Source of the DNA: Psammoneis japonica
Taxonomy: Eukaryota
Assembly: GCA_008632985.1 (NCBI GenBank)
Contig: QPGO01000004.1
Coordinates: 620,001 to 684,000, forward strand
Reading direction: 5' to 3'
DNA length: 64,000 nucleotides
Shown here: positions 1,886 to 32,549 of the stretch, piece by piece
Layout of the letters: each line of letters begins with the position of its first letter
How positions within the stretch are numbered: the stretch's first letter is position 1
The notes under the pieces: generated by a model
Told to the model about the DNA's origin: nothing
Database searches by the model: none
What the model saw: only the letters and a program-made list of their open reading frames with translations
Position numbers and translations under genes: made by a program

Positions 1886-3459
1886 CTATTCGTCGCGACG
1901 AATGGCAGGGTGGGCCTTGCACCACGCCAAACGTTCTCGGGCAGCGGCGGCCACCTCCTCCCCGTCGATGTCGGCGTGAGTCCGATAGTAACTAGGGTAA
2001 AGAGGTCCCAACAAGAGGTCGGACGGATGTCGGAGGGCCTGCCATAAAGTGGGCGTCACTCCGAGTTCGTCTCCCAGCTCCTCGATGACTTCGTGCGTAA
2101 GATCATACGTTGTGTGCTTGCCTTGCATCCTAATGGTCTTGATGGCCTCGGCACCCTTTCGGACGTCTGACTCGGCCGGTCGAGGGATTTTTCCTGACCA
2201 AATTGCGGCCACGTATCTGGCTTGCATTTCCACGAGGGGAAACTGGGCACCGAAACAATCCGTCTTGGTCACGGCCAGATTGCGCACGTCAGGTACGAGC
2301 GTTCGTTTATAGGCCGCCACGTCCGTCATGCCAGAGGGTCCAACAAAGGCACCCATTTGTTTCTGAAAGTCCTCCGTGAAAAAAGACAAATCCAGACCTG
2401 TATAGCCGGTGGCCGATATGATTGCGTCAAACTCTTGCGAAGTGCCGTCGATGAAGGTGACAGTTTTACCCTCGGCACTGACAAAATTGGGTTTCACGAA
2501 GAGTCGTTTTTCCTGAACCTCTTGTATGTATCCAGAGGTGTATGCACACGCCATCTCCTTCATCGAGGCTTCTGGGTCCGGCACGACATCTGCCGGCGCA
2601 TTCTCCAGTGTCAGCTGAGTGGGATAATGTTTGAGGGTGTCGGCCTTGAATGCCGACAAAACGAGACTCTCAGGCAGGTAAGGCTTGAGCCAAAGACCCA
2701 ACCTCTTGAAAAAGGCCAGTTCAAGGGAGGTCCCGCCTCGGTGAACTTGTCCAGCAAATAGTGGGGCCGCCGAACGGAGTTCACCACGAGTTCGGCGCCG
2801 TACTGCTTTCGACTCAGGTGACATGCAATGTCAGAGCCGGATACTGCCCCACCGACCACCAAGACGCGTTGTCCACGGAAATCCTCGAGAGAATTCACCT
2901 CCTGACTATGCAAAATTTTACCGGTGTAGTTTGAGAGCTTGTCTTTTAGGGGCATCTTGGGAGTGGTGAAACGTCCGTTGCAAAGGATGACAGCGTCGAA
3001 CTCTTCCTCTTGTCGTTTGCCGCCCTTAGCCTTGATGGTTGTAACGAGGAAATTTCCTCCCATTTCGTCGGAGGAGCGACTAATGGAGGCTACGGTTGTC
3101 CCAAGACGAAAGCGTTCCGACAGTTCAAAGTGATCCGCGTAGGCCCGGAGATAGGCACCCGCCTCCTTTTGACTCGCAAAAAAGCCGCCTACCTCTTCAG
3201 CGTCTTGCATGCAATAATCCTCGGCGTTCCAGGCAAAGTCGGAAAACTCCGACGTGGAACGGGTTGTGTTGAGCGTCAGCTCCTTGTAGACACCCGAGTT
3301 GCGATTGTTTATGCACCACATGCCGCCAATCTCGTCGCGACGCTCAAAGGCTGTCGGCTCGAGACCGGCGGCAAGGAGTTCCTTGGTGGCAGCCAAGCCC
3401 GCGGGACCCAATCCGACGACAGCCACCGTTTGAATCCTGTTTTTCTCATCTGGAGCCAT
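1886..3459 (-). CDS. Flavin-containing monooxygenase (FMO-like)
   Basis: GLGPAG FAD motif, FERRDEIGGMW, YTGKILHSQ FMO signature, VLVVGGAVSGSDIA NADPH motif and DAIISATGY. Two ORFs are joined by a frameshift near 2737. Confidence 0.88.
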
Positions 3460-3752
3460 TGTTGTAGCGTCCGCTTTGTTGTTCCAACGAAGAATGGCAA
3501 CGCATCATCAAGAATTCGTTCCGTTGCATTCATTGCAGAAAAGAAAGAACAGCAAGGAACGAAAAACAAAAAAATGAGGGTGCGCCGCACATTGAATCAT
3601 CCAGAATATCTTCAACTTGAACCTCCTGACAACAGACAAACACCAAACAAGAGGAAAAAGGACGAAAATAGTAATTTCGACAATTTCCGAATTTCGACAC
3701 AAAAATGGTTGATTTCGACCTAGCTCTCGCTCTCACCCATCACAAATTCACT

Positions 3753-4803
3753 ATGATGATATCCAAATCGAGTGGTACCGTCATGATTCGTCTCGTGCCC
3801 CCTGAAAAGCTACTGGCAACCCTGGTGCCAATGAGGAGCTTGCTGTGCGTCGTTGCATCCCGAGATTTGCTTGGTTTGGCAGTTTCAGATCCGTACCTGG
3901 GATCGGGTCGCCCTTTAGCGCCGGTGTCGTCAGGGGCAGATTTACCAGCCATTGTGAGCGAGAATGGGGTTGGCGGTTTGCTTTGGGGATTACCTATGAG
4001 TGAGAAAGACACGCAGGAAAATGCAAAGATTATTCGAGAAATGACCATCAGGGAATGCGAAATTGATTTGCCCCAATGCACCGTTGACGACGGCATCACG
4101 TGGGAAGAAGCTCGCATCGAGGCGCAAGCCGAAGTGGAAATGTGGGAAGACGTCGTGTTTGAAGACAATAACCTTTCCACTGAAGCAGCTATAGTTCTGA
4201 ACAATTTCCTCTGGGTTCATACGGGTGGTTGGAGGAACACATTTGGATAGGATTGCTAGAGGGAGTGATTGTTATTTTGCTGCCGATGCTGTGCCATGCA
4301 TGCCGGGACAGCCGAGCGGCCCATTCATCTTAATCGAACCATCGCAGAAAGTGGCTCCGGAATCTTTTTCTGGACTTTTGATAGTGACGGCTGTGAGTTC
4401 ATTGATGTGGAAACCATTCGCCCAGTTCTAGGCTACTATGTAGTGGTTACACCAGGCATCCCGACATACGTTGACGCATGCGTGACAGCTCAATTCGATC
4501 TAGGCGCATCCAATGACTGCACTTCTCATGCCGTACGACCGCGGTGATATAATTTGAACATGGTTGTGGGATATCGGCCAGCGATCCCTCTATGATTTTT
4601 ACTTAACAAGATCTCAAAGACGCATCACAAGGAATGGACTTGGCGTAGAATACATGGTGATGAATGACATTCAAGCTGACCCAGAGGGCAGTTTCGGTAC
4701 TATCGGGTTTGAAGTCGACACGTATAAAGATGCGTTTACTGGACGTTCGAGGGCAACGGATATACCATTCGAGACTTGCAGAATTCTTTGTGATGTTGTA
4801 TAG
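3753..4803 (+). pseudogene. Hypothetical protein broken into several frames (pseudogene or assembly indels)
   Basis: Consecutive protein-like ORFs (3705-4250, 4269-4547, 4564-4803) on the same strand. No family recognised. Confidence 0.3.
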
Positions 4804-6097
4804 ATTTTGGCATCGTTCAAGTCCTACTCCAGAAACTGGAACTAACAAACGTTGTAGGAAACGGCGTTCTTGCCAGAGAAGTAAACGATGTCTACCACGC
4901 CACCATTTGGCAGAATGGTTGGACACACTTATGGTAGATGCAACGTCCAGGTCTCATGCTGCGTGTAATTGTTGGAAACGTCCATGGACGACAGAGTTGC
5001 GTTCATAAGTGTAGCGCGTAAGAAGTCAGAGGGGAATATTTCTGTGCAGGCTGGGTCGGGCAGTACAACTGAATGTGGAACATGTAGTGATGGACTAGAG
5101 TAGGCTACATCAGCGGCAGAGTACCTTAAGGAGGATATGGGAGCTTGAGGTCTTGTTGGGGTGTCAAGATATTGCCAAGTGTTTTCATTGGCAATTGTTT
5201 CGCGACTTGCGAAGCTTCTGCAACAAAATGCGGTTCGGGAATCATCCAAGAAGAGGTATTTAGGTGGCCTGATTGGCAATTTCGCGCCTGACCGCAAAGC
5301 CCTCGACAACAATCGGTGACTACGTACCTAATGTAGACAAAGTGAAGGTGGTAGGTGGTGCAGGTTATTTTCAATGTTATAGACACCAACCCAGGCCGAT
5401 GAGAAGATATAGAGTGCCAAGTTCCTGAACTCCTTGCCGTGGACCGTATCAAGGGACAGCGAATGAGCCTATCAATCTTGATCAAGTTTCGGCGTCCTCG
5501 TTAGGTGGCTATTCTTGGGCGGTTGAGAACGACAAGTGTACTTTGGTCGACGCGGAAATTCTCCATCCAGTTTAACGGCTACTCTTGGTGGAGAAGCCCT
5601 CAGAGACTACGCTACCGTCACCGTCATACCGAAAGCCAGGGGCAAATTGAACCTAAAGATACGCAAGCATCTTCTGACTGTCAAACTCTAGTTGAAACCA
5701 GTCAGTACAGTACTCTGAAACAGTCATGGAGACTGAGCAACAAGCTGTGGTTTATTAAGAAGTGGCTTAAAGGACAGGCTGATTCTAATGTCTGGATGAA
5801 GCAAATGTCCAGGAAAGAAAAGCTTGTCATCGACGCCACAGTTGATCAGGTGTTGGTCCTCCTGAATCAATGCGAGGGGCAGTTTTGTTCCAAGTTACAG
5901 CAGAGAAGATTAACGCAGCGCTGCTCTTTTTTAGCATGTTCATCAGCGAGAACCGCATTTAAGGCTACACAAGTATAAGAAAGCGACTGTATCTACTGAC
6001 AACCACATGCATAGGATGCACTACGTTGTAAAAACACACACATACCCTAGGAGTACAATAGGTCAGTTGAAGCACTCGACGCGAGCTACAGTATTAG

Positions 6098-7663
<1,566 letters not shown>

Positions 7664-7832
7664 ATTCGTAGCTGGTATAATCGCGATAGCAAGAAAACTA
7701 AAAAGCACTTTCTTTGCTGTAAACAACCCTTACTGTAGTCGTATATGATATCATTTAAAAGTATCAACTACTACGTGTTCAATTTTCTACACATTGGCAA
7801 GATCGAATCATGCCGAACCGCATTGCTCATTC

Positions 7833-9166
7833 TCAAACAGTAGCCTTGGCGACAAGAGCACCATTCTTATCCATGGCTTCCGCTACCAAGACGGCATTCA
7901 GGGCGGCTCCACGCAACAGTTGGTCCCCACTGACAAAGAACTCAATTCCATTATCAAAGACAATGGACTTGCGAAGTCGGCCAACCTCCACATCATATTG
8001 TCCGGTGGCTGTGAGAGGCATTGGATACTCGAGGTTATCGGGGTCGTCAACGAGCTTGACACCCGGTGCCTCTTCAAGAGCCTTACGAGCGGCGGCGATA
8101 TCCACAGGCTTTTCGGTTTCCACAACAATAGCCTCCGAATGAGCGCGGTATGTGGGGATACGGACAGCAGTACAGCTGACGGGGAAATCATCTGGCAAGT
8201 CACAGATCTTACGGGTCTCCCATGTAACCTTCATCTCTTCCTTGGTGTATCCGTTCTCCTGGAACTTGTCAATCTGCGGAATAACGTTGAAAGGCAGAGG
8301 ATGGGCAAAGATCTTGTTCTCTGCGACATCTCTTTCGCCACTGAGAACCGTACGAGTACCTTCCTGAAGTTCATCCATACCGGGCTGTCCAGCACCAGAG
8401 GCGGCTTGGTAGGTGGACATGAGAACCTTCTTGAGCCCAAAGAGCTTGTGAAGAGGCCACAAAGCCATGAGGCCAATGGCAGTCGTACAGTTGGGGTTGG
8501 CAATCAATTTGTAGCCTTTCGTCGCATCGCCGTTAATTTCAGGAACACACAAGGGAACCTTGGGGTTGTAGCGGAAAGCAGACTTTATGGCGGCAGAAGA
8601 AAGAAATAGATGTGACAACGACATGTTAGCCAAAGGCTTCGAGCAGGAAAAACGATGCAGTCATACTCTTAGGAATTGAAACATACCGAGTTATCAATCA
8701 CAACAGCTCCATCATCTCCCGCTGAGATAGCTTCCGCATGTTCTAGAGAGAAATCTCCACTGACAGCCAAGAAAACAACGTCGCATTCTCTCGCTTTCTC
8801 AACATCGAATAGTTCAACATCAATTGTACCGTACTTTTCAGTCTCGATCTTGCTTCCCGCAGACCTGGAGCTTCCAAAGATGCGGAGGGATTCAACAGGA
8901 AAGTTTCTGTTCTCCAAGCACTGGCGAATTTCCTTTCCAACAGCTCCAGTGGCACCGACAATCGCAACCTTGTAGGACATTTGGAGAGGGCTGCTTGGGC
9001 TGGATCGGGAAAAACGCTGAGAGCTTCGGTTTACCGTGAAGGACGACCTTGAAAGAGCTGAACGAGGCTGGAGGGATGAATGAGTGACTCCAAAAGCAGC
9101 TTCAGTGGTATGGAAAGAGGCTGCAGCAACGAACAAAGCAGCGACGGCTCCGTATGAGAACTTCAT
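7833..9166 (-). CDS. asd: Aspartate-semialdehyde dehydrogenase, plastid-targeted
   Basis: [20 protein letters not shown] spanning intron 8583-8686, catalytic [16 protein letters not shown] and [13 protein letters not shown]. Bipartite presequence (TEAAF). Confidence 0.95.
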
Positions 9167-9744
9167 TGTAGCTTCTGGTTTGTTTTGTGATGTCCGATGT
9201 TCTTTTGGCTTTTTTGGGTGGAGTTCGGACGCGCGTGTGTGTGGCGTCGGATGGAATCTGAAAAGCGCGCGCTTTCGCAGCCGCACAAATCCCAAAATCT
9301 TTTTCGGAAGGCGCCGGGTCTGTCTGTTTTCCTCAGATAAGAAGTATGGATAGAGTTCAGTCTATTGAACTTTCACATCTTGTTTTACCGGTATGTAGTC
9401 TTTCTTTACTTCTACTTTGAGTTGCTGGTTGCTGGAAGATAAGAACGAGACAATGGACGACGCACTAAAAGAGAAGAAGCGCATCATGAACTACTCCAGA
9501 GTAGTCGCTACACATTATTTGTTCCGCATTGCTTTTCCGCGATGAAGCAGTGTAAAGAGATTTGTTTTCGCTTTTGGGCATCCCATAACAAGAATCAACG
9601 CTCAAGTGAAGAAAACAGAGACTGTGATAAACAAGTATTTTCTATGTCTACAATGTATGGACTCAACACTCCTCTCTTGCCAACTTGACCCGCGATAGCT
9701 GTACTGGCGCCTTCATTTGCAACCAAGAACCTTTCTGTTCGTGT

Positions 9745-10192
9745 CTAGCCGAAGAAGCCTCCCTTCTTTTTCGTTTCAACTTTTCCACTAGCTGATCCCT
9801 TTGGCACTTTCTTGAAACGACGCTTCACTGAACCACATGGCGGACAGCTCCAGTTGTCTGGGAGTTTCTTCCACGCCTCTGGTCCTTTTGTAAACACATA
9901 GCCACAATCCTGCATCATCAAGGGAAAACGAAGCAACGTAAGTCAACCATCGAATTTAGTAGGCTCTCGGAAGGAAAACGATTTCAAGCGAGAAACGTAT
10001 ACTGATTCTATAACGTACCAAGCAGACGTAGTCACCCGGGCTCCCATCATCTTTTGGACCAAAGAACATATTCAATTGGCTGGTGCTTCTTGGCGCCGCT
10101 ACTACTCGATTCCCGACAAAGGCAGAGGAAGAAAAAGCACTGACATTGCAGGCCATAAGAACCGCAAGGATGATAGCGAAAACACTCTTCAT
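9745..10192 (-). CDS. Plastid-targeted rubredoxin-like protein
   Basis: YVCL|DCGY...LPDNWSCPPCG (two CxxC motifs) across intron 9910-10018. Signal peptide ends VSAF. Confidence 0.9.
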
Positions 10193-10558
10193 TTTCAAAA
10201 GGCTGATTTCGGTAAAAGTGGGGTACAGAAGCTTACAGGTGAATAATGAGAATGGTGTGAATTGCTGATGTTGTAGACTCGACTTTGGCTGATGACACGA
10301 TTGATGCTGATGATAAGACGTATCCACGTCAGCCTCCAAATAAATGTTGATGACGCAAAAGCGCGGGGAATTTGTGGCGCGCACAAGCAACCGTCCGCCG
10401 ATGGTGAGAATAGATGCCCGCAATCTCCAACTCCGCTCCGCTTCTGCATGCTTCATCTCTGACTTTGAACGCAGCAGTGCCGATAAGCATCACCAACTTC
10501 TTCTGAAGAAACCGTTTTGTCGAATGCTTTTATTTTTTGTCGCCATCTTCTGTGAACC

Positions 10559-11513
10559 ATGAGTAGCTTGGGCACAAGAAGGTTTTTCGTGTTGACGAAT
10601 CGGTACCGTCGTGACTTTGCCATAACTGCATCCCAAGCGAGTTTCAGCACGACGCAAGAACCAGCAACGAATGAGAAAGGATTCTTAGCTAAAATGTGGG
10701 ACAAGTACTCGATTCAAGGTCAAAACCGGAGGATTGTATTGGGAGAACACCTGTTCCGAGCCGCGCAGCAACGCTCCAACGACCCGTAAGTGTTTGAGAT
10801 TTTTCTAGTGTCGGTTGAAAGATATGATGCCCTGTATGTTTCTCATGCTTTATCTTGTACGTAGCGCTTGGTATCACCCAGGAAGAGTCGGAAGAGAGTT
10901 TCGTCCTCGTCACGCCATCTTGACAATGCATATCTGGTTTCTTCACAAACGCCTCATTAGCGATAAGCAAGATCCGAGTTTCTCGCTGTTGATTCAGGAA
11001 GAACTGTTTGATATTCTTTGGCATGACACAAAATCACGTATACGCGCCGAGGGTGTGAATGAGTTGACGGTGAACAAACACCTCAAAGATGTTCAAGCGT
11101 ACACCTTTCAACATTTATGTCATTACGACCACTGCTACACAGAACTTCTCGACAATCCAAAGGAGCGGTTCGAAACCATTGGAGGGTTGGTGTGGCGTCA
11201 CATCTTGATGCAAGATGAAGAGGCGCATGATGACTTTATTAAGAGATTGGCACATTATATTGAATTCCAGTACAACAACATTTGCACCGAGCTCCCTGCC
11301 GAATACTTTCACGAGGGTCGCATTGCTTGGGGTGAAATGCCTGATTTTTCCGGGATGAAAGACAACTCTGGCAATCTTTTGGAAGACAGCCCAATGCATG
11401 AGGATGATTTGCTGCCTCCCGGATGGCTCAAGAACTTGACGGACAGTGGAGAACCTTACTACTGGGAAGTAGCAACTATGAAATCACAGTGGGAGAAGCC
11501 GAAACGATCATAA
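10559..11513 (+). CDS. Ubiquinol-cytochrome c reductase chaperone (Cbp3/UQCC1 family) with C-terminal WW domain
   Basis: Cbp3-like core HAILTMHIWFLHKRL...LFDILWHD...YDH. WW motif LPPGW...PYYW...SQWEKP. Intron at 10786-10864. Confidence 0.8.
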
Positions 11514-11921
11514 AGGCTCTGTTCTCGTCCAAAGTATTAGTTTGAGTTGTACTCACTCCAGCGTAAGACCCTCCAAACAACAAACAACTATCTTTGCTCT
11601 TCTCTAATCTTCTCATGTTTTACCTCTAGTAGCTAGACTTACCGGCACTGAAGAGCGAACTGTTTGGATGAGAGACGGACGCATGTTTGTTGTGGCGTGG
11701 CGTGGCTAGGCATGCTTTATATTTCATATTTGTACATGAAGCAAGATAATAGAAGTTATTTTTATACATCATTGAAGATCAATGAATAGCTAATATTTTC
11801 GAAATTGGGAAGGGAAGAGCTTTTCCGCGCCGAGATCATTTTTCCAACACAAACATCAATGACATGTTCATGTTGAATGTTGTTGCTACGCTGCGCATCA
11901 CTCATACCGTAATAAGTTTTC

Positions 11922-13418
11922 ATGTTCACGATGATGCAAGGAGGAAACATATTTCCCATTCCGAGTAGCAATGCCTGCGCCGTGTTTGTTCCTTCGCCCA
12001 ACCTCGGGGATGCCGCGAGTCTCGAGCACATGAACAAGCTCTTCAAGGCCCGTCAGGCTTTCTCGCAAAACTTTCTTTTTGCCACGGGTGATTCCCATAA
12101 TCTAGACAAGGAACGGATTTACCACGAACTCTACCAGGACATTAAGGCGCACGCAGACTTTTGGTTCACTCGCGTTTTTTGTCCAGAAATGGAGTCCAAG
12201 TATGCCGAGTGGACCTTGGGGATTCTGGGAACGCTCGCCACGATCCGTAGGCAGCGAGGCGACGTCAGAGCTTGTCTGGAGATCTTGAAGCTAGATACCA
12301 AAGTACTTGAGGTCTATCAGAATATTGCCGACTACGACAACCCGGCCGAAAGAGAGTGCGTACGGGGACTAACCTACAAGTATAACTTGATTGTCGTCAA
12401 TGCCAACAGTCAAGCTCGCAACAGAGAAGTTGCACTCAAAGCCTTTCGCGACGCAGTTGTTTATGAAATCGAAGAAGCATACACCTTTGAGCAGCAAAAT
12501 TTTGGATACATGCTTCAGCGTCTTGGGGATAAGGACGAATACATGACTATGGAGCGTCTCAACAGCACTCCGGATGAGCTCATCTGGTCGACCTTGACGG
12601 CCATGATGGGTATGAGCCCATCGACCGTGAGCCATCTTCCCGTTGAGCCCAAGCTTTGTGACTATTGCGGCACAGAAGAGGAAATGTGCGGAGACATGAT
12701 GCGGTGCTCGGCTTGTCAAAAAGCGTTTTATTGCAACAAGGAGTGCCAGAAGCTGCACTGGAAGACGCTTCACAAACCCGAGTGTCGCGGCAAGCTGTAC
12801 AAAAAGGTCAAAGTTGGTGCGGAATCCATCAAGACTGCTGCCAAGATAATGACCAACAACTATGCGGAAACGGTGAGAAGGCATACGGGAGAAACAGTTT
12901 CCGATGAGAACAAACAAGCTGCGTTTCCGTGCCTTGTCAAACTCCTGAAGGAATTTCTCTTGAAGCATAAAGAGTTTAATTCGGGAAACGGCTTTTCTGA
13001 CATGCCCCGAGATGCCGAGTTTCTCGCCGAAGTCTCAAAGTACTTTGAGCAACAGCGTGGATACGAAGACTTAGTCGTAATCCATCAAAAGCCCGAGTGT
13101 CGTCGTCACCGCGCGGCGGTCACGTCGCCCGATAGAGAGAACGAGGTTCTCGTTGACGATGACACCCTTTTGGACTTTGCCCGAGGCTTCATGTCGCAAA
13201 TGAACCCACACTTTCGAGAACTTGGAGTGACAGTCGAGACGACGGATGAAATCGTGCATGCAGTTGTGTTGACCTTGAAGGAATACATGCTCTCCAATCC
13301 CGAGTACAATTCGTATCGAGGTTTCACCAAGCTGAAGAATAGCAACGAAGCCCGAGATGCAGCTGTAACGACCATTACAGATATTTTGGTAAGGAAAGGT
13401 CACGTCAGCGACGACTAG
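11922..13418 (+). CDS. MYND zinc-finger protein
   Basis: CDYC...RCSACQKAFYCNKECQKLHWKTLHKPEC within a 498-aa intronless ORF. Confidence 0.85.
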   Translation: MFTMMQGGNIFPIPSSNACAVFVPSPNLGDAASLEHMNKLFKARQAFSQNFLFATGDSHNLDKERIYHELYQDIKAHADFWFTRVFCPEMESKYAEWTLGILGTLATIRRQRGDVRACLEILKLDTKVLEVYQNIADYDNPAERECVRGLTYKYNLIVVNANSQARNREVALKAFRDAVVYEIEEAYTFEQQNFGYMLQRLGDKDEYMTMERLNSTPDELIWSTLTAMMGMSPSTVSHLPVEPKLCDYCGTEEEMCGDMMRCSACQKAFYCNKECQKLHWKTLHKPECRGKLYKKVKVGAESIKTAAKIMTNNYAETVRRHTGETVSDENKQAAFPCLVKLLKEFLLKHKEFNSGNGFSDMPRDAEFLAEVSKYFEQQRGYEDLVVIHQKPECRRHRAAVTSPDRENEVLVDDDTLLDFARGFMSQMNPHFRELGVTVETTDEIVHAVVLTLKEYMLSNPEYNSYRGFTKLKNSNEARDAAVTTITDILVRKGHVSDD

Positions 13419-13644
13419 GGCCCTAGGGACTTTGTGTGAAGTTGTGGCGTATTTGGGGCTGTCCATGGGTGGCATGTGCAGCTTGTGTACGATACATAAT
13501 CCTTGGCATTTAGAATTGTTTGTGTTGAAATGTTGCAAAATTTGCGTCGTTCTTTTTTTTCTTTTTTTTTTTTAAAGCAAGACAGTCGGTCACAGAGCTG
13601 CTGATGGGTGTCATTGAAGCGTCTGGATGTTGCAACTTTTATAA

Positions 13645-14437
13645 GTTGGTGAAAGGCAGGATTCGCAACTGGACAAGAGACGCCACCAGCCGGACATCGA
13701 CTGAGGAAGTGTCGGGCATTGGGAGGGATCATCATGTCCATGCACGCAAAATGCTTGTGAGCACTGTTGATCAACTTCCTTGAAAGTGACTTGGTCTCTC
13801 TCAATTGGTTTGAGTCATTGCTTGGACCAGGTTGTGAACAAGTGATCCAGAGGAGCCACACTGTCCAACGGCCATCTTTGGCCTGTCAAAACAACCCGCA
13901 GCTGGAAACCCATGTGCCAATGACAAGCACAGCAGGGCCCACCATGATGGGGTTCCTTTGCCACACATGGCATGACAGGCACTCGACACTGAACACCTCT
14001 TGTCTTTTTCTTTCCTGTCTTTTGTCTCTTCTCAAATGGAGTCTGCTGGGGGGTGGGGGNNNNNNNNNGGGGGGGGGCAAGCAAGGTGCTGGCATTGCAT
14101 GACAGCAGTGTGTGGCATGCAGCAAGGCTCAGTGCCTTGGCACACTCACACAGCTCTTCACTGTTTTCAACACCAAGCTGAGAAAAATGTCTCTGGCTTG
14201 TTTTTGTTGTGTTGTGTGCATGGCATTGCTGTGGTTGTGTCAGAGGGCAGCCAACTTGTGCCCAGAGAGCTTTGCAACAACACAGTCATTTCAAAATTTG
14301 CTCAATGCCAGAAGAGTCAAAAACATGCTCACACACACACTCAAAATTAGATGCTGCACATGTGCCACACATTCATGCACCACATTTGTCTTTTCACCAG
14401 CTTTCACCACCATTCCAAGAATCGCTGCAGATCTCTT
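13645..14437. mobile_element. Degenerate repeat, left part of the older sequence into which the copia inserted (contains assembly gap 14060-14068)
   Basis: TpA- and CpG-poor with no credible gene. A weak piggyBac-like peptide (QHNKNKPE, cf. QYNKxKP) occurs on the minus strand. Family uncertain. Confidence 0.45.
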
Positions 14438-14713
14438 TGACAGAAATTGAAGGCAAATGGCAAGAATTCAAACAACAACTCCTTGCTGCTGTCTAAATGG
14501 CAGATGAGTCTCCGCTCAGAGACCGTTGCAGGAGCCGAAAGACGTGCAAGTCGGTGTGATCGGGCTGCTGTCATTGTTCTTGTGAGCCTTGTGGCTCGAA
14601 AGCAAACTGCATCGCACGCGAACGCGCGGAACTAAAGCACACAAAACTGTGCGCGGCAAACTAAACAGCGCGCGACATTTCGTGCGCACCTGAATCCTGT
14701 TCAAATCCTGTCA
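14438..14713 (-). repeat. 3' LTR
   Basis: TGACAG...CTGTCA termini. Direct repeat of 21269-21544 with 13 substitutions by manual alignment. Confidence 0.96.
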
Positions 14714-14724
14714 CTCCCCAGTTT
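14714..14724 (-). other. Polypurine tract
   Basis: The minus strand reads AAACTGGGGAG immediately before the 3' LTR. Confidence 0.7.
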
Positions 14725-17700
14725 GCTTGAGGAGTCACAGAAACAGATTCGACTTCGGATGAAATGAAGTTCCAGAACATGAGGGGGCAGAGAAGGTCCC
14801 AGATTTGGGAGCAACCCCAATGCTTGCTGAGGATGTCAGCAGGGTTGCGGGAGCCTTCGATGAAGTGGAACTCAAGGCAACCAGAGGCAATTGCCTCACG
14901 CACACGGTGGAACGACAGTGCGGTGTGTCGCTTGTGTAACTTGGAGTGCGGGATGGTGGCACTGTCTACAACTGACTTGTTGTCACCGAACATGCAACTG
15001 ACATTACGGATCGGGACGCCAAGGTGGCGCAGGGTGATGTGCAGGTCAATGATCTGCTCGACACAAGTCCTTGCGGCAACAAATTCAGACCCGCAGGTCG
15101 CAGTCTCCACGGTGGCTTGCTTCTCAGAGAACCAATCAGCCGGGAATTTGTTGAGGAAGTGGAGCATTCCCATGACAGAGCGTCCGGTGAGCATGCAATG
15201 GCACAAGTTTGCATCGACGTAGTGGGTGGCAGTGACGAACTTGCCAAGGGGCAGTGGAGCGTCCTTTGGGATCATCTCTTCTGCTTCGCCGTACATGGAA
15301 TGCATCCATTCACAGGCTGGAGCAGGGAGATCCGAATGGTCGGGCTCTTCCGTGCGAACGCGGAGAGCACCGTGTCGCATCTTGGAGAGGCACCCACAGA
15401 CGCGTTTGGCACGATCCAAGTGGCCTTGACGGGGTGCAGCTCGGAAGCTAGAGAGTGACATGACGGCCGTGGCAATGTCAATTCGACCAAGGGACACTGC
15501 CCATTGGAGTGAACCAACAAGAGACTGGAACTTGTGAATGCCATCGGGTCCCAGCAGTTCGGAAGTGTCCAGTTCGGGGTGGTCACCCTTCTCCAGAGGT
15601 GACAGGGCGTTGGTGGCAGGTTTCTCCCCAAACAGTCAGGCGCAGCTGTCGACCATGCGCTCGATGTACTTGCGCGGAGACAGGCACAAGGTTCCGTTGG
15701 GATCCCAGGAAAAATCGCAACCCAGATGGAACTCAATGGGTCCCGCACCCTTGAGCTTGAACTTGCACTTTTCCGTGAGAGCATCGACGAAAGATTGAGG
15801 GTCCTTCATGGCAGTGGCGAGGTCATCCACACAAACGGCAATGTGTTCACAGTGGTCGCCGTTCCTGCGCATCCAAATGTCGGGTTCGGCGCGGCAGGGG
15901 AAGAAGCCTTCAGCTCGCAGGCAGTCGGCGAAGCGCTCGTGCCAGCGGAGACCGGAGCTGCACAGTCCATGCAGGGCCTTGTGGATGACAAGGATGTGTC
16001 CTTCGAGTTTGCCAAATTTGGGTCTGGCTGCAATGTAAAGCTTCTCCTTGGTGGTGGCTTCAAGGCAGGCATTGCCAATGTTGGTGGCCCATGTCTCCAA
16101 CTCGTTGAGTTCGGCCAGGAAAATCATCAGCCGAAGGCCACGGAGGGAGACCACTCCTGAGTAGACACCATCGACAGGTGCGTCCGTGAGGTGCCCGTCG
16201 GCTACGAGTCGTGCCTTGTGGCGACCGTCGTGTTTCACATCGTGCACTGGGTGCACTCGGATCTTCTTGTGTCCCACAGGAGGAGTGGAAGACTCGAAGG
16301 GCCCGCAGTCATGGAAGACTTTGCATTCGTCGAGTTGGCCCATCTCGAGATTAGTTGCGTCTCCCCATTTGCGGTTGCCGTTGCGTTCGTCTAGTGACAT
16401 GGCGTGTTTGTAGTTCCGGGGAACTTTGCATCCGCACTTGTGGCGAGGTGCAGTGTGGAAGGAGCAAAGCTTGGCTTGGTTGGCCATGCGAAATGGCTTC
16501 TTTTGGTGCCTCGCGATGGTGCGGAACCGCTTCCAGCCATCCGTGTCGAGGAGTCCGTTCTCTCGTGCATAGATGGCGCAGGTGACGGGGTCGTCCTTGG
16601 CGATGATGGCAAGAGGCTCGGACGTGATCTCCCCACTTTCCCATTCAAGCATGATGTTGTAGCTTGAGCCTTTCCAGGTTGGGTCATGAGGCTTCAGAGG
16701 TCCTTCGTGTGACACGATGCGTCGAAATTTCCAAACAGTGGTGTCTTCGTCTTCTTGCTCAATGTGATTCATGATGTCATTGCAGGCAAGGACTTCCTCG
16801 TGTTCGTCGTTGTTGACAGAGCAGACGAACTTAGTGAGCTCGGGATTGCCGTTCACTTTCCATTCATGGTCTTCGACGGCCTTGACGATGTGAGCTCTGT
16901 GGCGTTGTCCATCCTCTTGTGGTGTCCTGATCTCCCCATCAGGAGAATCGATGGGGTTGTCGTCATGGCGAGATTTGATGATGGGTTCAGGTGGCTCCCC
17001 ATCAGGAGGATCAAGACGCAGGTTTCGAACGGCAGGATCGGTGGCAGCGGAGCGGATGTTGGATCGGTGGAGGATCTTCTGAGTCTCGTCAGAGAGAATC
17101 TTGAAGGTCATCTGGTGGCCGACGTGCTCAGCAATGCCAACGAAGCGTCCACGCAACTCATGGGATTCGGACAGCCAATCGGAGTCATCGAGGTGGAAGC
17201 ACACGGGTTCCCACCAGTGAAAGCGAAGCAATGGGCTGATGTCCGGGGTGGAGCCAGTGAGAGTCTCGAGGGGCGTGCGCCAGTGGAGACGTGGGGACGC
17301 TGTGTGGTTGAGCATGAAGCACACATGCATGAGCGCCAGCAGCCATGTGTGGGCGGGCGAACCAAAACGATCCATGACAGTGTTCGCCATGCGCTTCACG
17401 GTCTGGCATCGACGCTCGGCAAAGTTTTGGTGTTGCTGGTGAGGCTCACTTTGCCAGCTGGAGATGAAGAGGGCCCGCAGGATCCCGAGCACTTTGTTGC
17501 TGATCTCAACTTGAGCACGGTCGCCAATGAGTTTGGATGGGGCACCACGCTCACGGATCTGATCCTCGAGTGTGTTGACAAACTCTTTGTCTGTCTTGGT
17601 GCCGCAGACGTCAGTGACGGTAGACTCGGTGCCAACAAACAGTTGGGCACTGGTGCAACCAGAGTCGACGGCCAGGGTGTCGGCATGAACGGTGTCAGTG

Positions 17701-20326
17701 GCGACAGGCTCGTTGCGGCGGTGCACATTAAGGGCGGGATTGGGTGATTTGTAGGCCTTCCTAAGGTGTGCACCGGCGGGCATGCGGGCGTGCTGCGTGG
17801 TGCAGTCAAAAGTACGACGGACCGTGTCGGCAGGTGGGAAGCCAAAGTGAGGCCGAAGAGACTCGAAGGGCGGGTCCTTGGGCTGTGCATTGCGCTCCGG
17901 GGGCGGGACGTCGGCGTCCTTGGGGTCAATCGCGTGTGGGTGACACTCGTAGAACACGTCGTTGTTCGGAATGAGGTGATCATCGAGGGCGGACGCGTGA
18001 TCGGCAGACAAGGAAGCGGACATGATGGTCTCGTTGACAACGACACGATGACGGCAGTTGCTGCACTCGTCAAACAGGTTGGCAGTGGGATCGTCCTGTG
18101 GGTCAGAGATCGCGTCGTACCACTGGTCGTCATCAGTGACAGAGTGATCGAGGACGGAAGGATCCCATGTGTCATCACCGGTGAGGATGACATGGGGCAG
18201 GGTGTCCCATTCGGCGTCAGTGCAAGGTCGCATGGCAACATGAGGCAGGCCGGCCTTGATGTCAATGGGGATGACACAGCCACCAGGAGTGGCAACACGT
18301 TGCAAGCCGTTGGGCACCTTGACAGAGCGATCGTTGACATCCTGTTTGTGCCATTCGAGCTGGCCACAGGAATGGATGGTCTTGCCCTTGCCCGTGCATG
18401 CGCACTGATGGAGGATGGCGATGACGGGACCACGCTGGGTCTCAATGACGGCACCAGTGGTGACAATGGGATGTCCACCAATTGATGATCGTCAATGCCC
18501 TGAACGTCGACTTGGCAAGAGGTGCGTGCAATGATGCGAACATCGTCGCCAGCAATGCCGCCGTTGGCCCCACGATCGACTAGAGCGCCAGTGCGTGCGG
18601 AGCGATGAGCAGAGGCAGAGCAAATGACATTGTGGTTGTTGACGCGGCGGCAAGTGCGGCCGTTAAGTTCCATGTCATCGGCAGAAGCTGGCGGGGTAGA
18701 GGGAGTGGCGGATGGCCCCGGTCGACCAGCATTGGGGGCTTGGTTAGGAGACAACAGACGGTGCAGATCACCGGGTGGCAGTGGCTTGCGCTTGGTGAGG
18801 TGCGCCAGGATGGGATTGTCCGAAGTGGCACCCACATTTGGAGCGGAGTCACCAGAGTCAGCAGGAGTCGTGTTGGACAAGTTGACATCACTGACACTCC
18901 CAAGGCGTTGGTCGTGAAGGTTGGCCATAACGGACTCATGGCAGTTGCTGTTTCGCGGGTTACGGGGAGGCGGACGAGAATGCGCAAGGATGATCGCCTT
19001 GGAGGAATGGGGCAACGAATCCCAAATCCGTTGGTGGTCGGGAGGGAGACGTTTCCATTGGTCACCGGTGAGGCTGGGACCACGGGTGTGGGCAGCATTG
19101 GCTTGAAGGACGTCAATGTCACTGTCAATGTCGTAGAACACATCGTCGGACGGTTCCTCGGAGTGGACGTCGTGTGCGTGTGTGGCACGTCGGGGAGCTC
19201 GAGGTGTCGTCTTGGGTTGAAACGCACTGTCGCATTGGGCTGCCGCGGAGAGGAGCAAGCCACAGCATTGATCGCATGTGAGGCTCTTGCCACTCTGCGT
19301 GCGATGCTGATCAGCTTGGTTCTTGACAGCACGGAGTTCCTCGACAGGGTGCACGGCATTCTCGAGCATGACGCGCTTCTGTCCTTCAGAGAAGTGGTCA
19401 CTGGCCGGGATGAGTGCCTCGCACTTGCGCAACTGATCTTGCCAATGAAGGATGAACCCGTGGGTCGGACCTTCGCACTTGCGCAACTGATCTTGCCAAT
19501 GAAGGATGAACCCGTGGGTCGGACCTTTCCAAGCACCATCACCAAGATGTGCGGTGGCAAGGTGCATTGGCAGGGTGGAGGACTCGATGGATGCGCGGGT
19601 GGAGGCGAGCGCGCACTCAGACAAGGCGCGGCAGACGGTCTGTGCGTCAGAAGACCCCACATTTTCGCGGATGAGAGCCTTGCCCTTGTCGGTGAGAAGG
19701 ATGCGTTCGAAGACGGCGAACATGCACATTTGCTGTTCAGCAAAGAGCAGTTTGTCTTCGGGGCTGGTCGGTTTGTACGACGAGTCTAGAATGCACTCGA
19801 CGTCTTGGGCACGGGCTTGTGCCACAAGTGAGATGTGCCAAGTGTGCCACTGCTTGTCGGATTTGAGAGCCGTGAAAGCAGTGGGATCACGCTTGATGCC
19901 TTGCTTGAAGTCCCGCACTGGGTCACGTGCCTTGGTCGGGTTGGTGACATGCGGAGGTGCGAGGGGTGAGCTGCCAATGGACACAGAAGACATGCAGTCG
20001 GGGCTGAGGCGGCAGGCAAGGAACTCGTCATGCGCGAACAACGAGGAGTCATTGGCAACGTCAAGACCTTTGTGTGCTTTGACAATGCACAGACTAACTG
20101 GAGCTGCCAACATGTTCTTACAACCACGGGGCAAAGGGATCACATTAGCGCCGTTGTCGCACTCAAGCGAGTCGATTTGGGGCGGCATGAATGTGAACAG
20201 TTCTTGACACGAGTCCATGCCGTCTTGTGCCAAAGCCAAACGGAGAGGGCTCCCAGCACCTTGGGCAAGCACGGTTCCAACAACGTGCTCGAAACCATCG
20301 GTTTGTTGCTGACGAGTGAGAACCAT
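14714..20326 (-). pseudogene. Hypermutated gag-pol polyprotein
   Basis: Start MVLTRQQQ at 20326. Protease LVDRGANGG. Integrase ATDT..., GDRAQ and QNFAERR. RT KHDGRHKARLVA and CVDD (from YVDD). RNase H KQATVETATCGSEF and NPADILSKHW. One frameshift near 18469 and one TGA at 15636-15638. Confidence 0.93.
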
Positions 20327-21268
20327 GGCAGACAAAAGTGGTGTCAGGACAAGCAATTCTTGTTGGGAAGCGAAGGCAGGCTTGAAGCTTGGGTGAGAAT
20401 GGACTTGACTTGAAACAGACTTGACTTGAAATCTTGATCTATCTTAAAATCAGAAGTCGCCGGGCTTTGCTGTCCCGTTCGTTGTCAAGTGCTAAACTTC
20501 CTATCCAGTCCGCAGAGTTGTGCCGGCATGTCCGAACCCGCAGCTGGTGGCGCTTTGGGTTGCTTACGAGCGGAGTGGCGGGTTGTAAACCCCTGCAGGC
20601 AAGCTGACCAGAGGTGGACAAGACCCCCGAACCGTTCTTATTTTGTGTCGGTTGGATTTCCCGATCAGGCTGGCCAGTTGACGCAGGCGTCAGGCGCTGT
20701 GGACGAACGAACAAACGCAGGAAAGAAGCACCCTCGCCCCAACGCAGGCTGCAATCACGGCTGCTTGCTCTCACAGTCGTCCTCGTGGACCCAGCAGAAC
20801 TGTGGAGCACCAGCAGTCCGGGGTGGATCAGGTGCAATGGACTCGGTGTGCTTGCAGAGTGGCAGCAAAACCGCAGTCCGAAGAGTGGGCACAGGTTCTT
20901 GGCCGTGAAGACATGCACACACACACATGTCTTCAGCGACGAAGATCCTTGAATGTGCAGGGTTCTTGACCGTTGACCGATGAATGGGCATGTCAAGGGA
21001 TGAGGATCAAGGGTGGACTTGGACATGACCGTTGAATGCATGTCTTCAGCGATCAAAGGCAGCACAATCAATCCAGATGTCCAGCAGCAAGGAGACTTGA
21101 TGGTGACGTTAACTTCCTGCCGATGCCCTGGTGTTGAATGCGCGTAGACTTGCCGATGCATGTAGAACACACACGGAGGTCCACGTAGAATTGAAACAGC
21201 ATCGTTGGTAAATCAACGACGACGATGGCGGTTGCTCAATGGGTTGACAATGAGCAAGACTGTCAACC

Positions 21269-21544
21269 TGACAGAAATTGAAGGCAAATGGCAAGAATTC
21301 AAACAACAACTCCTTGCTGCTGTCTAAATGGCAGATGAGTCTCCGCTCAGAGACCGTTGCAGGAGCCGAAAGACATGCAAGTCGGCACAATCGGGCTACT
21401 GTCATCATTCTTGTGAGCCTTGTGGCTCGAAAGCAAACTGCATCGCGCGCGAACGCGCGGAACTAAAGCACACAAAACTGTGCGCGGCAAACTGAACAGC
21501 GCGCGACATTTCGCGCGCACCCAAATCCTGTTCAAATCCTGTCA
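21269..21544 (-). repeat. 5' LTR
   Basis: Matches 14438-14713 and is followed by the TSD CTCTT. Confidence 0.96.
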
Positions 21545-21549
21545 CTCTT

Positions 21550-22510
21550 GATTTGTCATCTCTGCCTGTGATGTCTGCAGTGTGGCCACACCAGCATGTG
21601 ACAAGTGCAACACACATTGAGTGTGTTTCTTTTTTGATGTGTTCCAGTCCCAGGTGATGCATGCAACGACAATTCATTTTGAGTGCAAATTGTGCTCTTC
21701 TCATCTGGTGTGAAGCATTTTCACAAAAAAACACTTGAGCACATGGGCTTTTGTGGGTGTCCAAAGCATGGGCAGTTGGGTGGGTTTTTTGTTGGCATTC
21801 AATCCTCACAGACTCAATGCCAATTGTGCAACAGTGCATTTTGCATGGTGAAGCCTTCGCAGACAGAACACCTGCTGCTGCTGCTTCAGAAACATCACAC
21901 CAAAAAATTTGTGCCAACACATGTGCAAACATTCAAGAACACATGCAAGTCTTCAACATCATTGCAAAAAGTCATGTGTTGTGTTGCAATTCTTTTGTTG
22001 CAATGAAAAACTTTGATGGCGCCACAGAAACAATGATGTTGTGTGACACTGAGGCGAGTCTTGTCAGCATTGCAAAACATTGACACTTGGACAAACTCGT
22101 GCTTTTGGTGGCAAAAGCTTGGTCGCAAGTCAGAAACCACACAAAAGTTGAGCAAATGCCACATGTGATTTGGTTCACACATGGCTGGAACACATCTTTT
22201 GTTGCTGGCGCACTCTCTTTCCTCTTCTTTGTCTCACTTCGCTCCTGGCTGGGGGGCTTTCAAGAAGGGGCGGCACACACAGGCGGTTTCTCCAGCAACG
22301 TGAAAATTTGACTAAGACTGCAGAGACACAACAGCACTTTTTGGATGGGAGAAGTTTTGAGTCCTTGTGGGGTCACCTGGGTTGCAGCAGCAGCAAGTTG
22401 TTCGTCAGCTCGGCTGACGGTGTGGCAGCAAGCAGCAAACTGAGCCACGGTGGCCAAGCCAGCCATCACTTCTGGCAATTGACACAACCAAGATCAACAA
22501 GCCAGCGCCA
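21550..22510. mobile_element. Degenerate repeat, right part of the sequence interrupted by the copia
   Basis: TpA almost absent and CpG-poor. It joins the left flank at the TSD. No recognisable gene. Confidence 0.45.
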
Positions 22511-29859: not shown

Positions 29860-31429
29860 CAGTGTTCAGCGGGGTAGGGGGCGGAGAATGATGTCTCGTC
29901 GATCGAGTGATGAGGAGGAGTACTAGTCGTCTTCCCTCTTCCCCTCTTTTGTGTCGCCCTCAAAAAGGCAATGCCGCGCCACGTACGTCAGAACATACTG
30001 AGAAATGCGTGGAAAGTGACCTTGTGGTGACAATTATTGCCCCTGAGACGTGGCAAAATTGGGTGCAACAATGAATCTCGGTGAGGAACAAGCTGAATCT
30101 TCTGGCAGTCCTGCCGCACAGTGCTGCGTAAAGCGGTGTTGTGTGCTGCACTTTGACGTGTCACTCCGCTGGATTAAAAGTCAGCGGTGCATCCTCAACA
30201 AAATCTGAGACCTCGCACCTTCCAGTGCTCTCTGCTGATTGCTTCTCTGCCATGGATGACCTTTTCCCTGATGACCCCACCGAATGTTTTCTTGGCAACC
30301 CCTGTCGCTGAGCCCCTCTCCAAGTTTCTCTGCCACCCTGATGACCTCGTGCCTTCTCTCTGCCGTCCATTCCCACACCCCACTCTTCGACTCTGCCCGC
30401 GCCTTGTGCCCCCAAGACACCTCTCCTCTGTTCTGCTCTGCTGCCACCACAACTGTCTCCGTGCCTCCCTCTGCTGTTCCCTTCCCCATTCTGCACCACA
30501 GGCTCTTCACAGCTCAACATCTTGAAACAGATGCTCGTCTGCAGAGACGAGAGCTGTCATTGAGAAAAGCCATTGCTCTGCTGGCAGAGCTGTGTTGGCA
30601 TTTGTCAGCAGCCCTGTTGACATTGTTTGACAAAGCTTTGGAGTTCATGGTCATGCTCTCCTCTTTTTCTGCCAGCAGCACAGAGTGCCCAGCAGCACCT
30701 TCCTTTTTGCCGTGCACAAGAAGCACTGCAGCGGAGCACAGTGGGCTGCAATGGGCACCCCCTTGACTGAGTCCGGGGCACAAAAAATGGTGCAGTGATT
30801 TTTGGCTGTGCTGTGTGGCATGGTGCACTGTTCAGCCCCAGCAAATTAATGTCAACAAAAGGGAGTCTTGCCTTGCTGTGTGTCAGGAGGCTTCCTGCGC
30901 TGCTTCGCACACTTGCCTTGGCAGTGTGCGTGCAATGGCCATGGGTTGCCAAAGGTGTCAACATGCAAACTGTGAACTTGTGCAATGACAGGGGCCTGTT
31001 GATGCCAAACAATGACTCCAAAGAGTGAGATGAAAAAAACAAAGGTGAAAAATTAGAAACTGGCAACGGCAAAAATTTTCTTGCAACCAGTCACCCGTCG
31101 CCCCTCACCAGGAGTCAAAACATCTTTTCTTCACAACCCATCCCAGTTTTTTTATGATTCTCATGGTCCAGATGTTCCAACAACTTCTGCTGCTTGCATC
31201 AATCATGTCACACCTGAGCACCTTGCATCCAGGGAAAACTGATCTCCCTGTGGCGTGGCAACCACAACGCCGCCAGACACATCTGTTGCTTCAGCACTGA
31301 CATCCTGCAAATCACAAATGTGCAGGTTGGCACACAATCCATTGTCAGAGCAATCAACCATGTCATCAAACAAGCATGCTGCACCCAATGCACACTCCAC
31401 AAAATGCTCTGCATGAGTGCGATGAGTTC

Positions 31430-32070
31430 TCTCTCTTGCAGCTGTGCTGTCCAAGAACTCCACCAACTCATCAAAGGCATGGTCCAAAATTTTGAAACTT
31501 TGCAGGGTTGACTGGCATCACCATTGATGAGGTGCAAGATTGCAGATGACATCACAGATCCAGGCTCTGCTTGGACTCAAAGAGCAAACAACACTTGAAA
31601 TCTTTGTTGACTTCCTCCATCCAAGCCATGATTTCTCAGATCTTTGTGGGGCTTGGCTCCTTGAGAACACATTGCAGATGCCGCTTCTGACTCTGAAGTG
31701 CATTCTCAGGAACAGTGTGGTTGGAGAGGCAGTGCTGCCATTTTTCAAAGGCTCCTTTGTCTTCAATGTTCATCACCTTGTTCTCAAAAACTCACAGAGC
31801 ATTCCCTTGCAACATCATGTGCACAAGTTGGAACTTGTCACCGGCTTGTTTCTTGACACTCTGGCCCACCACAACTTTGCTGAATGTTTTTAAAAATTTG
31901 ATGTGCTTGGGAACTCTCTGCTTGTCATGGCACTCAACATTGATCATGTGGGCATGACTCTTCTTGTCTTCTGGATGAAAACACTGCTCCATCTTGAGAC
32001 GTTGGCTTGGTTTGAGCATCTTTGGCTTGGAAATCAACTCAAGTGGCATGGAGGCAATCTTCTGCTTGAT
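31430..32070 (-). mobile_element. Ty3/gypsy-like gag remnant
   Basis: Fragments KFQLVHMMLQGNAL, FPENALQSQKRHLQ and DHAFDELVEFLD resemble gag proteins of diatom gypsy-type elements. Recognised by motif recall, not by a search. Confidence 0.5.
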
Positions 32071-32549
32071 GGTGTGCTTTGTGGCAGATGCTTGAGGTGA
32101 AAGCTTCATTTTTGTGTTTTTGCATTTTGCAGTGTGCACACACAATGCACTGTGCTTGAAGAATGAGTGCAAACCAATGAAAGCAGAGCAAATCACAAAA
32201 AGTGGAAATCATGAGATTGGATTTTGCTCTGTGATTTTGGGTTTCTCCAAATGAGTTCTCAATGCCCCCCAAGCATTTGCACTGCTTTCACAGAGCAAAA
32301 GCCTTTTGAAAAATCTGGTCATTGCAACAGATTGTCTTGATGTGACCAATGTTGACATCTTGTGTGTGAACATTGTCTGTCAATTGTGTTTGCAATTTTG
32401 GACATCCAATCAATTCTGTGTGATCAATCTGACCTTCTCACACATCCTTCACAATTGTCACATGACTGACATGTGCATCAGTGTGCAACTGCAAACAAGT
32501 GCAATTTCTTCTGCTCAATGATGCTTGTTGCCGCTGCACCTCTGATCAA

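Follow-up and report, generated by a model that had tools for sequence, protein, structure and literature searches.

Why a retrotransposon should have lost most of a single dinucleotide, TpA, is the question raised by a 64,000-nucleotide stretch of the Psammoneis japonica genome (assembly GCA_008632985.1, contig QPGO01000004.1, positions 620,001–684,000; hereafter the window). Positions 14438–21544 of the window hold a complete Ty1/copia long terminal repeat (LTR) retrotransposon on the minus strand. An earlier note, made from the letters alone, proposed that a TpA-specific A:T>G:C mutator acts on repeats at the DNA level, and this proposal is supported by the loss of tyrosines, the differences between the two LTRs, and the existence of TA-bearing family copies. 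We consider it very probable that a locally confined process converted TpA to TpG or CpA on both strands of this element after its integration. The change is specific in dinucleotide and direction, affects both strands, postdates integration, is confined to repeat tracts, and is faster than CpG decay. The parts of the element are as follows.

14433–14437: left target-site duplication CTCTT, identical to the 5-mer at 21545–21549
14438–14713, minus strand: LTR (3' LTR of the element), 276 nt, with TGACAG...CTGTCA ends, a direct repeat of 21269–21544
14664–15635, minus strand: C-terminal pol frame (end of the reverse transcriptase and part of RNase H), holding SEK, TATCGSE, and LRHLG
15639–18491, minus strand: pol frame (integrase-like part and RVT_2 reverse transcriptase; protein P0001), 951 amino acids from stop to stop
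21269–21544, minus strand: LTR (5' LTR of the element), 276-nt direct repeat
21545–21549: right target-site duplication CTCTT, matching the left one

The pol protein P0001 matches the Pfam model RVT_2 over residues 738–948 (E 3e-21) and can be aligned over 99% of its length to copia-type polyproteins with PF07727; no integrase or protease model scored by itself in the Pfam search of this protein.

Within 14438–21544, TA occurs 53 times, an observed/expected ratio (O/E) of 0.16, and CG occurs 483 times (O/E 0.87). The steps TG and CA are raised (O/E 1.37 and 1.52, respectively). AT, AA, and TT are normal (0.95, 1.09, and 1.10), in line with the note's remark that these dinucleotides persist. 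A recount of 17101–17700 gave exactly 1 TA and 41 CG, as had been counted by hand, and the neighboring genes proved to be TA-rich as described: flanking genic DNA has a TA O/E of 0.52–0.59, with 38.6 TA per kb. Among 80 related copia loci from metagenomes, TA O/E ranges from 0.49 to 1.02 and none is close to 0.16; even if the lowest of these values (0.49) is assumed, a count of TA no higher than 53 would have a Poisson probability of 1e-24. These values bear on an explanation without any special mutator, in which the family owes an intrinsic TA poverty to its ancestral composition or to selection against TA. The host DNA itself has a TA O/E of about 0.58, which favors this explanation; however, all 80 metagenome relatives lie at or above 0.49.

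The pol protein points in the same direction. A search found 1074 pol homologs, and the best 120 (43–63% identity) were used for comparison. Tyr makes up on average 4.0% of these 120 proteins versus 0.95% of the element pol, whereas Cys (1.19% versus 3.36%) and His (3.51% versus 5.78%) are raised in the element. Aligning P0001 with the first 80 of these 120 homologs gave 360 columns that are at least 80% conserved. Among the conserved Tyr columns, 15 of 18 are changed in the element (9 to Cys, 4 to His, 1 to Phe, and 1 to Trp), compared with 21 changes in the remaining 342 conserved columns (Fisher p 3e-14). In a second alignment, 16 of 21 Tyr columns have become Cys or His and 23 of 352 other columns are changed. 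By comparison, four of five homologs examined in the same way have no Tyr column changed to Cys or His (0/17, 0/24, 0/29, and 0/29), and the fifth, P0076, has 5 of 28. Of the 36 replacements at conserved residues, 16 correspond to a single TA>TG/CA change, 10 to a single CG>TG/CA change, and 10 to neither. The TA-derived replacements include cross-codon cases, such as Ser>Gly and Ile>Val where the preceding codon ends in T, and the 10 CG-derived ones reveal that this copy carries CpG>TpG/CpA changes as well.

The details on which the earlier note had built its case were recovered almost entirely. The frame at 15636–18317 on the minus strand (893 amino acids) has 9 Tyr; the peptides CEHIAVCVDD, GNACL, KALHGL, VHPVHD, TATCGSE, and LRHLG all occur in the translations; and the cross-codon cases are present (SEK as TCT GAG, and LIGD). 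The ancestral motifs given there could be compared with a consensus of 19 homologs, which agrees on YEYIAVYVDD, GNAYL, KALYGL, LISD, DWYSKKQ, TATYGSE, and LRYLG but has VHLVFD where the note gives VHLVYD. At the C-terminal pol frame, the homolog consensus likewise reads SKK, TATYGSE, and LRYLG. The note had also named, among the findings that would undo its proposal, a family that is itself Tyr-poor and TA-free; the relatives and the other copies are neither. The low TA content is mutational, not ancestral. Tyr residues that are conserved for catalysis have been destroyed, which argues against an intrinsically TA-poor family.

The kinds of Tyr replacement also indicate which strands and which molecule were struck. 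Tyr>Cys reflects a change at the sense-strand A and Tyr>His a change at the antisense A. Their ratio in the element is 9:4 or 11:5, depending on the alignment, and in three other Tyr-poor homologs (described below) it is 7:7, 6:6, and 4:5. Summed over the four Tyr-poor sequences, there are 28 Tyr>Cys and 23 Tyr>His. Since both occur, editing of the sense RNA is ruled out and a process acting on DNA is indicated. A-to-I hyperediting at the RNA level, in which edits of the element's transcripts would become fixed on reverse transcription, is accordingly very unlikely: it would suit an element that is a retrotransposon, but it does not predict that both strands are struck about equally, and ADARs are known from metazoans. 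The 5' U preference of ADAR-type enzymes (bioRxiv 10.64898/2026.01.13.699255, Discussion) speaks for it. The LTRs contradict it, as shown next, and noncoding debris and a satellite that are also TA-free (see below) provide a further argument against it.

Both LTRs of an insertion derive from one template and are identical at the start. The two LTRs now differ at 13 nucleotides in 9 sites, all of which are transitions inside pyrimidine-purine (YpR) steps. These steps account for 144 of the 276 LTR positions (p 2e-4 for all 13 falling inside), and none of the 132 other positions differs. At four of the sites, one LTR reads TG where its partner reads CA; CpG decay, at the observed loss of 3 of 44 lineage-sites, would account for just 0.05 such pairs. 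At three of these four sites, other copies of the family read TA: 14556 (27% of depth), 14558 (43%), and 14692 (30%). Such pairs therefore represent a single ancestral TpA that was resolved on opposite strands after integration, and the divergence of once identical LTRs at TpA-derived sites dates these changes to the time after insertion. RNA editing, in which both LTRs would share the edited template, is contradicted by this result, and an intrinsically TA-poor family does not account for LTRs that diverged at TpA after insertion.

In all four double differences (14555–14692 and 21386–21523), TG belongs to the left LTR and CA to the right one, an arrangement with a chance probability of 1 in 8. 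This could be a hint of short-range strand coordination. Long-range coordination of the TG and CA products was considered and rejected, given that products alternate within 20 nt (Y881C, Y883H, and Y887C); the pol region in this respect is unlike the LTR sites with their uniform orientation.

Other copies of the family provide a second comparison. The copia family is very abundant: by summed depth, it exceeds single-copy DNA roughly a thousandfold. The depth was summed over the contigs of one public sample, the family being counted together with relatives at least 80% alike, and it reaches about 58,700–161,300 on the element versus 64 in the single-copy flank, values that are not an exact copy number. 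Among 844 variant places in the aligned contigs, the 40 with the best support were analyzed, and 33 of these lie in YpR steps (50% expected, p 3e-5). At 12 of the 40, this copy has TG or CA and 27–98% of the other depth has TA; at 14, this copy has TG or CA and 62–100% of the other depth has CG; at 4, this copy has TA and 27–60% of the others have TG or CA; at 3, this copy keeps CG; and the remaining 7 are other transitions. The variants at 15125, where 90% of the other-copy depth restores the Lys of SKK, and at 16169, where 98% restores Ser775, agree with the ancestral states deduced from proteins. That other copies have TA at the same places again argues against ancestral TA poverty, an explanation that we regard as highly improbable.

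A sequencing or assembly artefact, such as systematic miscalls at modified TpA, is the least probable of all the alternatives. Modified bases can give motif-specific miscalls on some platforms, and the sequencing platform used here is not on record. Nevertheless, contigs of the public runs (338 and 8877 nt) reproduce the junctions with 0–1 differences, these data contain TA-bearing copies side by side with copies that have TG or CA, and the same signature is found in unrelated assemblies.

The LTRs further allow the rates of TpA and CpG loss to be compared. Counted as LTR lineage-sites, losses amount to 10 of 16 for TpA, 3 of 44 for CpG, and 0 of 132 for non-YpR positions; per site, TpA loss is about 14 times CpG loss. 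This order matters for a further rival, in which T:G mismatches from deamination of 5-methylcytosine (5mC) in methylated repeats are repaired by Pol-eta-like error-prone patch synthesis that miscopies T at WA motifs (W, A or T). The hotspot of Pol eta is WA, with A>G as its most frequent change, and TpA and CpG losses co-occur in the same tracts, both of which suit this rival. However, AA and TT are not depleted (O/E 1.09–1.24), the changes are almost purely transitions, and young elements lose TpA with CpG nearly intact (3/44 lost here, and 0/22 differing in the LTRs of a second element described below). Loss of TpA with CpG intact means that TpA loss does not wait for CpG deamination, and the Pol-eta explanation is unlikely.

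The depletion extends beyond 14438–21544 to three further tracts.

13643–14437: left half of an older TA-free, CpG-poor tract, with 1 TA (O/E 0.02) and CG O/E 0.20
21545–22312: right half of the older tract, with 0 TA, CG O/E 0.28, and summed depth 288
30176–42888: block 2, 12.7 kb of degenerate repeats nearly devoid of TpA and CpG

The copia element was inserted into the older tract, thereby splitting 13643–14437 from 21545–22312. All borders of the depletion are sharp (13642/13643, 22312/22313, 30175/30176, and 42888/42889). At the right border of the older tract, TA resumes at 22313, and the depth of 288 gives way to 64, the value for single-copy DNA, in the bin beginning at 22339. Where there are depth data, TA-free tracts lie at depths higher than that of single-copy DNA. 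The left TA-free tract contains nine consecutive N at 14060–14068, either a gap of the assembly or withheld letters.

Over 30176–42540 of block 2, there are 28 TA (O/E 0.03) and 92 CG (0.13), with TG at 1.87 and CA at 1.91, such that CA and TG are nearly the sole pyrimidine-purine steps. Its summed depth is 200–6000, versus 64 for single-copy DNA, where contigs aligned. A Pfam search of 111 frames of this block gave only sub-threshold matches, including RT_RNaseH_2 at 33935–34180, and the block reads as old transposon debris. It also contains an 88-nt tandem duplication at 33516–33691.

Survival of TpA was further examined by extended context, with the expectation, TA/(TA+TG+CA) for each NTAN context, borrowed from the 80 relatives. 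In the values below, contexts are grouped by whether the sequence T-A-Y (Y, pyrimidine; R, purine) is read on two strands, one, or none.

Copia element of the window: surviving TpA 0.04 with T-A-Y on two strands, 0.15 on one, 0.37 on none
Block 2: surviving TpA 0.004 with T-A-Y on two strands, 0.015 on one, 0.18 on none
Copia-1 of contig C4 (L102, 1–6772; see below): surviving TpA 0.20 with T-A-Y on two strands, 0.28 on one, 0.49 on none

An additive two-rate model fits all three sets, with a T-A-Y rate that is 2.3–3.2 times the T-A-R rate. TpA with a pyrimidine next to it in the 3' direction on one strand or both disappears 2–3 times faster than Y-T-A-R sites, and the last surviving contexts are CTAA/TTAG, CTAG, and TTAA. 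The faster loss of T-A-Y than of T-A-R is a lead rather than a measurement.

The same signature occurs elsewhere. Among the best 120 homologs, three further copia polyproteins are Tyr-poor, with conserved Tyr replaced by Cys or His in 14 of 18 (P0097), 12 of 29 (P0053), and 9 of 22 columns (P0117). These three proteins have 49–57% identity to the element pol. P0053 additionally has 4 Tyr>Arg replacements, a sign that TG or CA may there have been converted onward to CG. Copia matches were also present in contigs assigned to bacterial metagenome-assembled genomes (MAGs), where 17 of 18 loci have a TA O/E of 0.46–0.98 and one (L094) has 0.00. Several of the bacterial-labeled MAGs (L081–L098) have multiple copia loci, 7 in one Sphingobacteriaceae bin and 3 in one Weeksellaceae bin, and the contigs concerned are mis-binned eukaryotic ones.

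The contig of L094 (G001:C4, with loci L102/L103; hereafter C4) is 25.6 kb long and plainly eukaryotic, though filed under a bacterial MAG. Its first element, copia-1, has LTRs that are 98% identical, a TA O/E of 0.18–0.28, CG of about 1.0, and 0.91% Tyr. The LTRs differ at only 3 sites, including two CA/TG pairs, and the 22 CpG are all preserved. Copia-2 has 0 TA over 7001–12000, CG of about 0.45, 0% Tyr in an 857-amino-acid frame, and the motifs GNACSEA, KALCGL, and CHECIAVCIDD. In addition, C4 carries a satellite of 183 bp in 43 copies, 98% alike, without TA or CG. Only short reverse transcriptase segments match between C4 and the window, at 64–71% identity; this low identity indicates that the C4 elements belong to a different family and probably to a different organism. 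The order of decay is common to the window and C4: TpA is lost first and CpG later.

Several points weigh against the process-level account. Of the 98 related copia loci from public collections, 97 have ordinary TA, so the process is far from general. No paralogue contig aligned to 13668–14125, which is TA-free, so the description of the process as repeat-targeted is supported for some of the tracts rather than for all. The 40 variant places were chosen by support from the 844, and the data on other copies are contigs, not reads, of one public sample that is possibly the assembly's own source. The ancestral residues were deduced from homologs that are only 43–63% identical. Finally, both LTRs share CA at 14572, where 34% of the other depth has TA; some TA loss may thus predate the insertion, and TG/CA states common to both LTRs are also what an intrinsically TA-poor family would have.

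A process of this kind has already been described once, in another lineage, in the only report on it that the literature search returned. The note's remark that no named system was known is outdated, as a 2026 preprint on Bigelowiella natans measured exactly this signature. In mutation-accumulation lines of that species, 231 of 302 mutations fell in two integrated viral regions, and 230 of these 231 were A>G or T>C, all 230 on TpA (bioRxiv 10.64898/2026.01.13.699255). The rate in the viral regions was about 1000 times the genome rate, only some lines were active, and reverse transcriptase and DDE domains were overrepresented among TpA-poor coding sequences; for the enzyme, an ADAT2 homolog was proposed, not tested (bioRxiv 10.64898/2026.01.13.699255). 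As reported there for integrated nucleocytoplasmic large DNA virus (NCLDV) and virophage DNA (Mettrop et al.), only TpA>TpG/CpA transitions occur, on both strands. The window has the same A:T>G:C change at TpA giving TpG or CpA, in confined tracts with the neighboring host DNA spared; a CpG component is also present here. The two cases differ in host, which is a chlorarachniophyte (Rhizaria) there and a diatom here. They also differ in target. The measured targets in B. natans are single-copy viral insertions with TpA approximately halved, whereas those in the window are a very-high-copy LTR retrotransposon and old repeats with 84–99% of TpA gone. The T-A-Y preference and the co-occurring CpG loss seen here are not described for B. 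natans in the abstract, Results, or Discussion of the preprint. A literature search on TpA depletion and hypermutation returned no report for diatoms or LTR retrotransposons, and a term search of text from the founding diatom copia paper (PMC2806351) gave no mention of the signature.

Other known systems share some of these features. Fungal repeat-induced point mutation (RIP) resembles the present case in its dense, dinucleotide-context transitions, its confinement to repeats with sharp borders, and its destruction of transposon genes. However, the RIP changes are C>T, for the most part at CpA, so that TpA arises and GC content drops, whereas the A:T>G:C changes here destroy TpA and raise GC content; instead of C:G>T:A changes that create TpA, the window has enriched CpA/TpG (1.4–1.5 in the element and 1.9 in block 2). 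As regards the duplication that triggers RIP, a single-copy region was struck in B. natans (bioRxiv 10.64898/2026.01.13.699255). Decay of 5mC at CpG is also a symmetric change of a YpR step to TpG or CpA, on either strand and in silenced repeats, but it cannot remove TpA. Here, such CpG decay is a minor component in the young element and complete in the old blocks. Diatom transposons are reported to carry H3K9me3 and DNA methylation (PMC4504042; PMC2806351), and the latter fits the CpG component. ADAR/APOBEC editing of animal retroelements (e.g., PMC4866542) likewise leaves deaminase hypermutation fixed in retroelement copies. That editing acts on RNA or cDNA before integration and is strand-specific, whereas the changes here are post-integration and on both strands, as seen from the differing LTRs and from 23 Tyr>His versus 28 Tyr>Cys.

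The following sequence of events would account for the observations. After integration, A:T>G:C transitions at TpA on both strands would produce TpG or CpA, and about 60–85% of the TpA would have been removed from the element. A slower CpG>TpG/CpA decay would run alongside, as expected from deamination of 5mC in silenced repeats. Older nearby repeats would lose both dinucleotides, leaving CA and TG as almost the sole pyrimidine-purine steps. The process would be the same as that which the mutation-accumulation experiment demonstrated for integrated viral DNA in B. natans, and an enzyme would presumably act on DNA in silenced or repeated chromatin.

As for the chemistry, we tentatively favor conversion of adenine to hypoxanthine by a putative ADAT2/TadA-like deaminase that needs a 5' T, while regarding it as short of an even prospect. 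Thymine oxidation comes close behind, then Pol-eta-type repair synthesis, with the remainder unassigned. If the process-level account holds, thymine oxidation is a possible but somewhat more doubtful route: a TET/JBP-type dioxygenase would mark thymine at the palindromic TpA step in silenced repeats, giving 5-hydroxymethyluracil (5hmU) and then 5-formyluracil, and occasional mispairing of the oxidized thymine with G at replication would yield T>C. Changes on one strand would appear as TA>CA and on the other as TA>TG, and TpA loss would reflect a second epigenetic mark that decays in parallel with methylated CpG. In dinoflagellates, 5hmU is reported to be made by TET/JBP homologs, to be enriched in repeats, and to silence transposons, and in earlier work its substitution for thymine showed a preference for TA and TC (PMC11572971). 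The principal mutation reported for 5-formyluracil is A:T>G:C through mispairing with G (PMC7051996). In the window, the oldest repeats have lost TpA and CpG alike, and the T-A-Y preference is equivalent to R-T-A on the T strand; both observations are consistent with thymine oxidation. Dinoflagellate 5hmU is thus a parallel from within the stramenopile-alveolate-Rhizaria (SAR) group, as a base modification that lies on repeats, silences transposons, and reportedly favors TA. However, it is a mark and not a mutational signature, with no reported link to TpA loss, and the TC favored there is unaffected here: TpC is not depleted (TC O/E 1.19 in the element and 1.04 in 30176–42540), unlike the TA-and-TC pattern of dinoflagellates. 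The literature search also found no paper that links 5hmU to diatoms.

A broader reading is possible, although we hold it with considerable doubt. TpA-directed hypermutation may be an old pathway common to distant SAR lineages (Rhizaria and stramenopiles), working through enzymatic modification of the palindromic TpA in silenced DNA, either by a dedicated DNA adenine deaminase or by a heritable thymine mark that would serve as a second epigenetic dinucleotide code beside methylated CpG. In some diatoms, this pathway would act on retrotransposon families of about a thousand copies, and faster than methyl-CpG decay.

What is new in the window relative to the B. natans case is the diatom host, the near-saturated retrotransposon targets, the proof from LTRs of post-integration action, an independent replicate, and the context preference. 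Since the phenomenon is also seen in a diatom, where its targets are LTR retrotransposons, and in a public contig unrelated to the window, it is not peculiar to one strain or to viral insertions. A genome with very many independently mutated copies is a place to work out the spectrum, the extended context, and the responsible enzyme, and both genome-defense and base-editing research would have an interest in a naturally occurring enzyme that introduces A:T>G:C changes into DNA at a defined dinucleotide. There are also practical consequences. Because all 13 LTR differences arose at hypermutable steps, dating of insertions by LTR divergence is invalid in such genomes. Moreover, TA-free DNA has lost the TAA and TAG stops, and the resulting long open reading frames in all six frames are spurious, not genes.

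The genes around the element are ordinary and mostly uninterrupted, and include TIP49/RuvBL2, a cation-efflux protein, a PPR protein, a semialdehyde dehydrogenase, a proteasome subunit, and others. Pfam searches of these neighboring genes gave housekeeping domains and no deaminase or dioxygenase. The RuvBL2 protein has 77–81% identity to proteins of named diatoms, and in a FastTree phylogeny of 19 sequences it is nested inside the diatoms, with chrysophytes, Nannochloropsis, and an oomycete among the sequences outside. The relatives of pol include a Fistulifera solaris protein. These protein comparisons identify a diatom, not Bigelowiella natans, as the host. The database proteins closest to those of the element have 63% (long) and 76% (short) identity, such that no close family copy is among them, and a scan of a viral contig collection found no relative of the element. 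At the end of the window, TA has normal density until 63668 and is absent from the last 332 bases (63669–64000), which may be the edge of another hypermutated repeat.

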